Shown: piece by piece, positions 13,037 to 44,756 of the stretch | How positions within the stretch are numbered: the stretch's first letter is position 1 | How the letters are laid out: the number at the start of each line of letters is the position of its first letter | Source: a virus | Length of the DNA: 64,000 nt | IMG/VR virus record: IMGVR_UViG_3300032271_000682 | Location: 25,796 to 89,795 of that record | Direction: 5' to 3' (one strand) | Notes under the pieces: generated by a model | What the model was told of the DNA's origin: nothing | Databases searched by the model: none | What the model saw: the letters and a program-made list of their open reading frames with translations, nothing else | Program-made: the position numbers and the translations under genes

Positions 13037-13042
13037 ATGTTT

Positions 13043-13440
13043 TTAAAGAATTGTTGTAAACCCTGAGTAATCAGGACAGAAGTAAAGAGAAAAGTGTCCA
13101 AGACGAGGGTTCGATTCCCTCCAGCTTCACCATAAAGGGATTACATGAATTACATTGACAATACAATAGTGCTTGAAAACGGCAGAACAGTACATTATAC
13201 AAAAGATGTATCTAAAATGTCGCTTAAAGAAGCTAATAAAATGTTAGTCACTATTAGAAAGTCTCTTTATGATGGGGCTGACCAGGTTTCGATTGGGCAA
13301 AGAGTAACGGAATGGACAACTCGACACAGATAGTCGTAAAAAGTAAACAACCAATAAATGCTAACGATGAAAATTGGGCATTAGCCGCTTGAAAAAGTTG
13401 CTTAGGGTAGGAAATACCTCGTAACAGAAAATACCAATAG
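13043..13440 (+). ncRNA. ssrA: Circularly permuted (two-piece) tmRNA; tag ANDENWALAA
   Basis: T-arm gagggTTCGATTccctc and CAGCTTC-A-CCA ending 13132 precede the 5' end GGGGCTG at 13274; tag frame 13360-13392. Confidence 0.93.
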
Positions 13441-13464
13441 GGACTTTCGAGTCCCTATTTTTTT
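13436..13464 (+). terminator. Intrinsic terminator after tmRNA
   Basis: aatagggact-ttcg-agtccctatt followed by T run. Confidence 0.9.
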
Positions 13465-13497
13465 GACGATAAATACAGTATATGTTAGAGTATCACA

Positions 13498-41157: not shown

Positions 41158-42378
41158 ATGACTCAAATATTACACTGCTCATTCTGCACTAAACACAAAA
41201 ATGCCGTTAAAAAATTAATTGTAGGCGAAAGTTCGGCAATCTGTGACGGTTGTATAACATATTGTACCGAATTGCTCATCACTGATGACGAAATCGATAA
41301 AATTTCTGAATCATCACATTCATCATTATATCCAGATGATATTAAACGATTCTTGGATGAGTACATAGTCGGACAAGATCACGCAAAGAAAATCATAAGT
41401 GTCGCCGTTTCTAATCATTACAAAAGAATCAATAATAAAAGCGACACCATAATACAAAAAAGCAACGTACTAATAGTTGGCCCAACTGGGTCTGGAAAAA
41501 CTCTGCTTGCTAAAACTGTAGCAAAATATCTAGACGTACCATTTGTAATCGCAGATGCCACCTCATTAACTGAGGCTGGATACGTTGGCGATGATGTCGA
41601 ATCAATGATCGGTAGACTAGTAGCAGCGGCTGGAGGCGACATTGAAAGAGCGCAACGAGGCATCGTATTCATTGATGAAATTGATAAAATTTCTAGAAAA
41701 TCAGAGGGCGCATCTATCACTCGTGATGTAAGCGGTGAAGGCGTTCAACAAGCTCTACTTAAATTAGTAGAAGGAACTGTTTGTAGAATTCCACAACGTG
41801 GCAGAAGAAAAAATCCTAGCCAAGAAATGCTAGAAGTAGATACTACTAACATTCTCTTTATTTCTGGCGGAGCTTTTGTTGGTCTTAAAGATATAGTTGC
41901 TAATCGTATTGATGGTAACAGTATTGGTTTTTCTGCCAATCTTTCAGATAAATCTCAAGATCAAAATTACTTAGAAAAACTAATGCCAGATGATCTGACT
42001 AAATTCGGAATGATACCAGAATTTACTGGTCGCTTTCCTAGTCTAGTCAGCATTACTGAACTTAATAAAGAACAACTAATTAGTATTCTTACTAGCGTAA
42101 AAAATAATTACATTCAACAGTATGTATATCTTCTTGGACTAGATAATATAGAATTGACTTTTGGTTCAGACGCAATAGATCAGATAGCAGAAAATTGTTT
42201 GAAATTAAAGACAGGCGCTCGTGGATTACATAGTGAGATTGAACGAGTATTACTACCACATATGTACGATGCTCAAAGTTACCAAAAGAACAATATAACT
42301 AAGATAAATATCACTAGAGAATTAGTTGACAAACCAAGAATATTAACAGAGGATGTAAATGAAGGTAATAAATCATAA
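41158..42378 (+). CDS. clpX: Clp protease ATP-binding subunit ClpX
   Basis: CSFC/CDGC Zn domain, [31 protein letters not shown] loop, TGARGL. Confidence 0.95.
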
Positions 42379-42565
42379 AGATAATTTTGAGCAAACGCTT
42401 AGAAAGTTTAAAAATAAAGTAGCTGATAGTGGATTACTAGAAGAAATACGCGCTCGTCAAACTTACGAAAAACCAACTACTACTAGAAAAGTAAAAGCAG
42501 CGAAAGCAAAGAGTCGTTGGAAGAAATACTTGCGTAGTCAAGAATTGCCTAAAAAATTGTATTGA
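42359..42565 (+). CDS. rpsU: Ribosomal protein bS21
   Basis: LRKFKNKV...[20 protein letters not shown]. Confidence 0.9.
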
Positions 42566-43589: not shown

Positions 43590-43652
43590 TAACATATCTT
43601 GACATTTGATTCAAGTATAAATATAATAGTGATACTACAAAGGAGATTTATT

Positions 43653-43782: not shown

Positions 43783-44346
43783 ATGGCAACTTGTCTGACA
43801 TGTAATAAAGAGTTTGAAATTCGTCCATGGTTCAAACAGTATTGCTCATCTGATTGTAAGGGTGCTATTAATGCAGGCATGCCGGCTTGGAATAAAGGTC
43901 TGAAAATGACTGATGAACAAAAGTCAAAAATGAATTTAGAAGGATTTAAATTGGGTTGGGGTTGGAATAAGGGTATACCAAATGAAATTGCTAGACAAAG
44001 AATGATCATTAATAACCCAAACAAAGATGGAAAGGTAAATAATTCTAGACCAAAAAAACTGATTGAAGATGAATTCATATTATATAAAAGAGAATGTAAG
44101 AAAGCAACTTATAGATCATGGTATAAAATGAAAAAAGAAGGATTGATTCCAGAAAATACTGGGAAAAGAAAAGATCAATTTCAACTTGATCATATTATCC
44201 CATTCAAACAAGGATTTGATTTGAAAATAGATCCTAGTATTATTGGTGGAATGAAAAACTTAAGATATATTTTAGGTGAAGATAATCGTAAAAAATGGGA
44301 TAGTTATCAGCCCATCAATGTTGTAACTAGTATTATAGGAGATTAA
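43783..44346 (+). mobile_element. Free-standing HNH homing endonuclease with NUMOD3-type repeats
   Basis: N-terminal CxxC...CxxxC; PAWNKGLK and GWNKGIP repeats; QLDHIIP...NL...N HNH core. Confidence 0.85.
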
Positions 44347-44347
44347 A

Positions 44348-44756
44348 ATGGCATATTCGGCTGCTGTACTGGATCATTATGAAAATCCAAGAAATGTAGG
44401 ATCATTTGATAAGGAGGAAATAGCGCAAGTGGGAACCGGCATGGTCGGTGCTCCCGCTTGCGGTTAACGGAGATGTAATGAAGTTACAAATCAAAGTCAT
44501 TGATGGAATTATTACAGATGCTAAGTTTAAAACATACGGGTGCGGTAGTGCCATTGCCAGTTCATCATTAGTCACTGAATGGGTCAAGGGAAAAACTCTT
44601 GATGAAGCAGCGACAATTAAAAACACTCAAATCGCTCAAGAACTCGCTCTTCCGCCGGTCAAGATTCACTGTTCAATACTTGCAGAAGATGCTATTAAAG
44701 CTGCTATAGCAGATTATAGGAAAAAGCATGATGTTATCTCTGAAGTATTGGCCTGA
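44348..44756 (+). CDS. iscU: Fe-S scaffold IscU, interrupted by a 7-nt insertion (stop + frame change) at 44465-44471
   Basis: Frame A 44348-44467 MAYSAAVLDHYENPRNVG...GAPACG*; frame +1 continues GDVMKLQ...FKTYGCGSAIASSS...LPPVKIHCSILAEDAI. Confidence 0.9.

Follow-up and report, generated by a model that had tools for sequence, protein, structure and literature searches.

The window analysed here, a stretch of 64,000 nucleotides (64 kb), is part of an 89.8-kb viral record, and the estimated completeness of that record (26%) points to a jumbo phage as the source. Within the window an iscU gene is interrupted by seven nucleotides that begin with a stop codon, and a gene for a putative free-standing endonuclease lies directly upstream. 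The features of the locus are as follows, with the take-off and landing codons named for the ribosome hop that is proposed below.

43599..43627 (+): sigma-70-type promoter, TTGACA-17-TATAAT, 12/12 consensus, preceding a small ORF, the HNH gene and iscU
43783..44346 (+): putative free-standing endonuclease gene encoding 187 aa, with four Cys in an N-terminal motif and the HNH-type DH...N...N at the C terminus
44348..44464 (+): iscU 5' segment, codons 1-39, NifU_N positions 1-35 (Pfam E 9.5e-10), ending ...APACG
44411..44417 (+): Shine-Dalgarno-like AAGGAGG, 6 nt 5' of the hairpin
44424..44462 (+): predicted 17-bp RNA hairpin, arms 44424-44440 and 44444-44449 plus 44452-44462, loop ATG, with a 2-nt bulge
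44462..44464 (+): take-off Gly codon GGT, the Gly of Cys-Gly-Asp
44465..44471 (+): 7-nt insert TAACGGA, made up of TAA (stop, 44465-44467), C (spacer, 44468) and GGA (landing Gly codon, 44469-44471)
44472..44756 (+): iscU 3' segment, 94 codons plus stop, NifU_N positions 36-124 (Pfam E 7e-35), beginning DVMKLQ...

The HNH ORF ends with TAA at 44344-44346, a single A follows, and the iscU ATG stands at 44348, which agrees with the one-nucleotide gap given in the initial annotation. The same annotation had placed the insert about 120 nt from the HNH gene, in the most conserved codons of iscU, and it indeed lies 117 nt past the ATG in the Cys-Gly-Asp motif. No terminator-like site was found between the small ORF that follows the promoter, the HNH gene and iscU, so the HNH gene and iscU are probably co-transcribed. 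Relative to its 5' segment, the 3' segment of iscU lies in the +1 frame, and the match to Pfam NifU_N breaks exactly between positions 35 and 36, between the Gly and the Asp of Cys-Gly-Asp. When TAACGGA is removed in silico, an ordinary IscU of 133 aa results. Downstream of iscU are def, an iscA-type gene, hsp20 and clpS. The start of def (peptide deformylase) lies 29 nt before the iscU stop, giving an overlap at 44728-44756, and from this arrangement iscU, def and the iscA-type gene look translationally coupled. Further upstream, a 68-aa ORF at 42359-42565 (+) resembles ribosomal protein S21 by eye; a near-identical ORF is present in L002, a syntenic locus without an HNH gene.

Several weak but concordant lines of evidence suggest that the 187-aa ORF encodes an HNH nuclease. 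In an alignment of 54 HNH homologues, D136-H137, N159, N168 and the four N-terminal Cys residues are invariant. The Pfam HNH match of the window protein is weak and below the cut-off (E 0.027), and 35 of the 54 homologues match the same family at E<=1. The AlphaFold model of the protein has a pLDDT of 81.9, and its best fold matches, although weak, are HNH nucleases (4h9d, Z 4.9; 5h0o, Z 3.7); the Foldseek E value of the structural match is 0.19. A search of PDB sequences with the HNH alignment profile returned nothing meaningful. The NUMOD3 label that the initial annotation gave this protein could not be confirmed for the window copy, and a weak match to it appears in just 9 of the 54 homologues (best E 0.021).

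Inserts of 4-9 nt are found at the same iscU codon in at least about 140 other metagenome contigs, which rules out an assembly artefact. Across the insert alleles there are 26 distinct combinations of take-off codon and insert, with insert lengths of 4, 6, 7, 8 or 9 nt and the pattern GGN-stop-N(0-3)-GGN. All forms have GGN before the insert, and 25 of 26 have GGN as the last codon, ahead of GAT. The codon right after the take-off Gly is a stop (TAA, TAG or TGA) in 23 of the 26 forms and AGG in one, the 4-nt form. Three forms break the rule; TGTTGGA and TGTTGAC contain no stop, and TGTTGAC also has no landing GGN. These three exceptional forms may be decaying. The take-off and landing codons are often unlike in their third base, as in the window, where GGT is paired with GGA.

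Two measures indicate that the 3' part of iscU is under purifying selection. In a codon alignment its dN/dS is 0.079 for insert alleles versus 0.065 for uninterrupted ones, and the GCGSA and HCS motifs, with their Cys and His-Cys residues, are kept in 69 of 70 insert alleles. All three frame relations between the two parts of the gene occur, so a fixed frameshift, readthrough or a change of code cannot explain the insert series. Most likely, a hop of peptidyl-tRNA(Gly) from one GGN to the other accounts for every insert form but one. Two observations support skipping of the insert during translation: the 4-, 6-, 7-, 8- and 9-nt series with its stop and second Gly codon, and the purifying selection that appears to act on the 3' part. 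With regard to the features by which bypassing is recognised, the series has cognate take-off and landing codons, a slow codon in the A site and independence of frame; the marks of prfB-type +1 frameshifting, a fixed +1 shift and a Shine-Dalgarno sequence about 3 nt upstream, are not seen. Reassignment of a stop codon was considered and rejected, as the site has all three stops and varies in frame, and as ORFs are terminated by TAG in loci whose insert contains an in-frame TAG. A search of the 64-kb window for a tRNA gene that would explain the re-pairing from GGT to GGA found none. The window does contain a tmRNA gene (ARAGORN, marked tmRNA*) at 13040-13483 (+), with the tag peptide VKSKQPINANDENWALAA; a phage tmRNA is of interest near a recoding site that would stall ribosomes at a stop codon.

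The 5' part of the interrupted gene carries further signals. Of 75 insert alleles, 72 have GGAG a short distance 5' of the hairpin, versus 3 of 136 uninterrupted alleles, and the 17-bp hairpin is predicted in all 75, ending at the first G of the take-off codon. This G is also the last base of the hairpin in the window, where the z score is -4.0 on 96 nt. The median hairpin energy is -23.1 kcal/mol in insert alleles versus -11.2 kcal/mol for the same stretch in 77 uninterrupted alleles (p 8e-26). Covariation was assessed on 33 distinct sequences, in which 95.5% of cells are paired and four pairs have changed on both sides; one pair is seen as AU, CG, UA and GC, all four Watson-Crick types. None of 500 shuffles reached the observed values, and controls slid along the sequence came nowhere near them. 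The initial annotation had described a two-part element made of nuclease and insert. Both of these parts stand, but the count of two does not, as the 17-bp hairpin and GGAG are also carried. In locus L205 the hairpin is identical to that of the window stretch at 44424-44471, and the insert differs (GGC TGA CG GGC, 8 nt). From this comparison, the signals around the insert seem to evolve more slowly than the insert itself. The window also has a small hairpin on the 3' side of the landing site, which was set aside because it is not conserved in relatives.

The IMG/VR collections were searched with the 3' part of iscU, with an unbiased DNA pattern allowing any 4-12-nt insert between the Gly and Asp of Cys-Gly-Asp, with the HNH alignment, and with iscU of an HNH-linked uninterrupted allele. 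The resulting sample, in which these search modes are mixed, comprises 311 viral loci with 211 distinct iscU alleles among the matches listed. Every HNH homologue with downstream sequence (74 of 74, among the matches listed) lies immediately 5' of iscU. The distinct alleles are distributed as follows, according to what lies upstream and to the state of the core MVGAPACG/DVM, where the slash marks the insertion point.

Intact HNH gene upstream: canonical core 0, substituted core 9, insert 51
HNH remnant upstream: canonical core 0, substituted core 0, insert 7
No HNH gene upstream: canonical core 117, substituted core 7, insert 14

The canonical core is thus present in 0 of 67 HNH-linked alleles (58 insert, 9 substituted) versus 117 of 138 HNH-less alleles, and altered and canonical cores differ by HNH status with a Fisher p of 9e-36. 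The co-occurrence of nuclease gene and insert, on which the initial annotation had staked its reading, was therefore borne out, and it holds when independent pairs are compared: on the iscU 3' tree there are 15 well-supported pairs that differ in HNH status, about 11.5 of them concordant and 0 opposite (median p about 0.001). Of two samples seeded with iscU, one has an insert in 6 of its 79 loci and the other in 0 of 80, and an HNH gene or remnant accompanies 5 of those 6; none was found at the uninterrupted loci of either sample. The public 'phages' collection contained no close relative of the locus and yielded distant iscU matches and partial HNH matches in T4-like Acinetobacter phages. A search of cellular genomes with the insert pattern gave at least 120 matches, none of which, among the matches listed, is in iscU or adjoins an HNH gene; these are chance matches.

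The HNH gene and the insert are only 117 nt apart, and their association is in part plain linkage. The argument for a functional connection comes from the nine substituted alleles and from the differing 3' backgrounds. These nine alleles have an intact HNH gene beside an uninterrupted iscU and occupy four or more separate positions on the HNH tree. The core is substituted in all nine, versus 7 of 124 HNH-less uninterrupted alleles (p 4e-10), with Met->Leu seven codons before the Asp plus Ala->Ser, Val->Leu, Met->Leu, or VGA->TGS. The hairpin is absent from all of them. The HNH gene was never found beside the canonical sequence, as would be expected if this core stretch were the recognition site of the nuclease. 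The proposal that the insert alters the site in the carrier fits 58 of the 67 HNH-linked alleles, but the insert is not the sole route, since the other nine are uninterrupted and substituted. Four HNH-less, uninterrupted loci (L294, L351, L327 and L289) have the core LVGAPACGDL[ML], as in some HNH-linked alleles, and are candidates for immune alleles that remained after loss of the nuclease.

Trees built from the two parts of iscU (only 114 and 258 columns) differ in the way predicted for a mobile cassette, in that the insert alleles are grouped by the 5' part and not by the 3' part. The first sample contributes seven insert alleles, which cluster in the 5'-part tree; the likelihood of the constrained tree is better, and 0 of 500 label shuffles equal this result. 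The 3'-part tree rejects monophyly of the insert alleles (AU p 0.026, lnL -77). Presence and absence of the nuclease gene can be followed at a shared position: L006, L013 and L059 have the same upstream genes and the same junction, with no HNH gene in L006, an intact one in L013, and the last ~95 nt of one in L059. Ten nucleotides separate the stop of a Gly-rich gene from iscU in L006, and the HNH gene fills that place in L013. Both L013 and L059 have the insert, the latter beside its 5'-deleted HNH remnant. L002, which lacks an HNH gene, shares synteny with the window. The window and the group formed by L013, L164 and L171 are 100% identical over ~105 nt centred near the insert, whereas the HNH proteins of the window and L164/L171 are only 55-57% identical and distal iscU is 74-79% identical to that of the L013/L164/L171 group. 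The identical stretch resembles a short patch of conversion around the site, and conversion of this kind may explain the insert alleles that lost or never had the nuclease.

We propose, with a probability of about 0.7, that a selfish cassette, made up of the HNH gene, the 117 nt at the start of iscU and the 7-nt insert, combines homing, immunity and a ribosome hop. The HNH protein would be a free-standing homing endonuclease, and the recognition site that we infer for it is the otherwise invariant DNA encoding G-M-V-G-A-P-A-C-G-D-V-M of phage iscU. During co-infection it would cut or nick cassette-free alleles, and repair would copy the whole cassette or merely a short patch around the cut. 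Carriers would be immune through an altered site: most lineages would have it changed by a 4-9-nt insert, a few by substituted codons. In translation of the interrupted gene, the ribosome would pause at the stop TAA, which would occupy the A site while peptidyl-tRNA(Gly) is paired with GGT; this tRNA would then re-pair with GGA 7 nt downstream and reading would resume at GAT, giving the normal 133-aa IscU. The signals for the hop would be carried in the cassette, namely the upstream hairpin and perhaps GGAG. The 3' arm of the hairpin ends at the take-off codon, and we conjecture, by analogy with the 5' stem-loop of T4 gene 60, that the mRNA would be drawn forward as the hairpin refolds behind the ribosome. 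The initial annotation had already read the locus as a homing nuclease with a self-immunity insert, and that reading is supported by the co-occurrence across relatives, by presence and absence in syntenic genomes, by remnants that keep the insert, and by the discordant histories of the 5' and 3' parts.

Other explanations place the weight elsewhere. The hop, hairpin and insert could serve to control IscU translation, for example as a brake sensitive to release factor or to a tRNA, and be unrelated to nuclease immunity, with the HNH protein cutting elsewhere (for example, at its own intergenic site) or being no homing enzyme. The linkage over 117 nt could alone explain why the HNH gene and the insert are inherited together, the 14 insert alleles without any HNH gene keep the hairpin and GGAG, and immunity has been doubted as the sole role of the T4 bypass (Manning & Atkins, bioRxiv 10.1101/2022.08.31.505936). 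We nevertheless regard translational control as unlikely. The placement of the nuclease gene beside an uninterrupted iscU arose at least four times, and the substitution of all nine such alleles at otherwise invariant codons flanking Cys-Gly-Asp would be unexpected if the site were irrelevant to the nuclease. In addition, the hairpin-plus-insert device occurs in no uninterrupted HNH-less allele among 160 iscU-seeded loci. Alternatively, iscU could be dead, the insert a repair scar or assembly error, and the HNH gene a mere neighbour. L119, an insert allele without an HNH gene, has a second in-frame stop further 3' (...ALPP*LVKIHCS...) and is possibly a decaying copy. As an account of the family, however, a dead gene deserves almost no credence and is already contradicted by the comparative data: the inserts recur at one codon in at least about 140 independent contigs, the low dN/dS of the 3' part (0.079) is on a par with that of intact alleles, the catalytic motifs persist in 69 of 70, and the co-varying hairpin is specific to insert alleles.

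Two further explanations dispense with the hop. Translation could stop at the insert and restart downstream, so that IscU would be made as two assembling peptides of 39 aa and about 92 aa; an ATG does lie two codons past the landing site of the window (D-V-M), and insertions of MobA and MobE yield working split proteins. This is improbable, since the landing GGN, needless for a restart, is kept in 25 of 26 forms, several insert alleles read D-V-L and have no ATG there, the 4-nt form has no in-frame stop, and Cys37 and Asp39 of the cluster site would be split apart. Slightly less probable again is an ordinary prfB-like +1 frameshift at GGT-TAA-C, which would give C-G-N-G-D with two extra residues. 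A 7-nt insert is two codons plus one, and an A-site stop with an upstream GGAG is a classic +1 signal, but the 6- and 9-nt forms are in frame with the stop first and the 8-nt forms would need +2 or -1. GGAG is moreover ~45 nt upstream and not 3 nt, re-pairing from GGT to GTT would be poor, and the two added residues would fall between cluster ligands.

The closest known system to the proposed cassette is T4 MobA/gene 60. According to the account in Manning & Atkins (bioRxiv 10.1101/2022.08.31.505936), the gene 60 gap and MobA make up one mobile cassette, self-nicking is prevented by the gap (Bonocora 2011), and the endonuclease is often lost with the bypass retained. In both systems a free-standing endonuclease gene of HNH type, a putative one in the case of iscU, lies just 5' of a coding gap in highly conserved codons, both have Gly take-off and Gly landing codons with a stop (or rare codon) right after take-off, and both have RNA structure 5' of take-off together with an SD-like element. 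The endonuclease is often degraded or lost in both while the gap is kept, and the gap is read as self-protection. The differences are also considerable. The target is iscU (NifU_N) and not the large subunit of topoisomerase, the gap is 4-9 nt (7 nt in the window) in place of 50 nt, and no stem-loop at take-off encloses the stop, the iscU hairpin being wholly 5' of the take-off codon. The T4 gene is divided into two ORFs that have gained tails, whereas no endonuclease ORF divides iscU. The take-off and landing codons of iscU may differ at the third base where T4 has a matched GGA pair, and some carriers are substituted instead of insert-bearing. The HNH protein has no detectable similarity to the T4 MobA/60.1 remnants; BLASTP against T4 gp60.1 and the 37-aa mobA remnant gave no match, the T4 copy being defective. 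On these comparisons the iscU system would not be a member of the T4 MobA/gene 60 family.

Short tRNA hops over a stop or slow codon have been described in E. coli test constructs, as reported in the accounts of Weiss et al. 1987 and O'Connor et al. 1989. As in those hops, the peptidyl-tRNA would re-pair with a nearby cognate codon in any frame and one amino acid would represent the whole stretch. The E. coli hops are synthetic or accidental and low-level, whereas the iscU inserts form a natural conserved family, in many diverged phages and with a hairpin of its own. The T4 Seg and Mob enzymes, which were reportedly covered in Virol J in 2010, are said to be free-standing homing endonucleases whose immunity comes from target substitution. 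They share with the iscU system a gene set between conserved genes, its presence or absence among relatives, co-conversion of flanking markers and an altered target in the carrier, and they differ from it in that the iscU alteration is, in most lineages, an insertion within the reading frame and would need recoding. A recoded insertion would allow an element to occupy codons that cannot change. Lang and colleagues reportedly described in 2014 the mitochondrial byps of Magnusiomyces capitatus, numerous short non-coding inserts inside genes that ribosomes skip between matching codons and that are maybe mobile. The byps may be likened to the iscU inserts but are 27-55 nt long against 4-9 nt, mitochondrial, and not known to have a linked endonuclease. 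Full-text literature searches found no paper on an iscU bypass.

To our knowledge, programmed ribosomal bypassing has essentially one natural bacterial or phage model, T4 gene 60. A survey in 2022 called the T4 cassette unique and its purpose a puzzle (Manning & Atkins, bioRxiv 10.1101/2022.08.31.505936). The iscU cassette would be an independent second bypass system, in another gene, with an apparently unrelated HNH protein and a gap of 4-9 nt. It also provides a natural series of mutants, consisting of 26 insert forms, hairpins that co-vary, and alleles that have or lack the nuclease, so that two questions become testable: what a ribosome hop needs at a minimum, and whether bypassing is an immunity device of homing endonucleases. 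Gene callers would report such iscU genes as broken. More tentatively, short ribosome hops could be an evolvable 'immunity patch' by which a homing endonuclease occupies immutable codons with neither intron nor intein. The patch of ~100 nt, hairpin plus insert, could then spread alone by gene conversion and give rise to the insert alleles without an HNH gene, and the variety of insert lengths and sequences could reflect an arms race between nuclease variants and insert variants. We hold this to be possible, though less likely than not; if true, the same trick would be expected at other conserved genes beside other free-standing nucleases.

A second kind of insertion was observed in iscU of four loci. 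L255 (3167-4468), L260, L156 and L183 carry an 8-nt hop insert (GGA TGA CT GGA) and, in the same gene, an intein-like insertion of ~310 aa at the second cluster Cys (...KTYGC/LTSN...VGSHN/CGSAIASS..., slashes marking its ends). L255 and L260, with this further insertion in their iscU, are among the 74 HNH loci. With a hop insert and an intein-like insertion in the same iscU, the phage gene appears to be the target of two kinds of selfish element.
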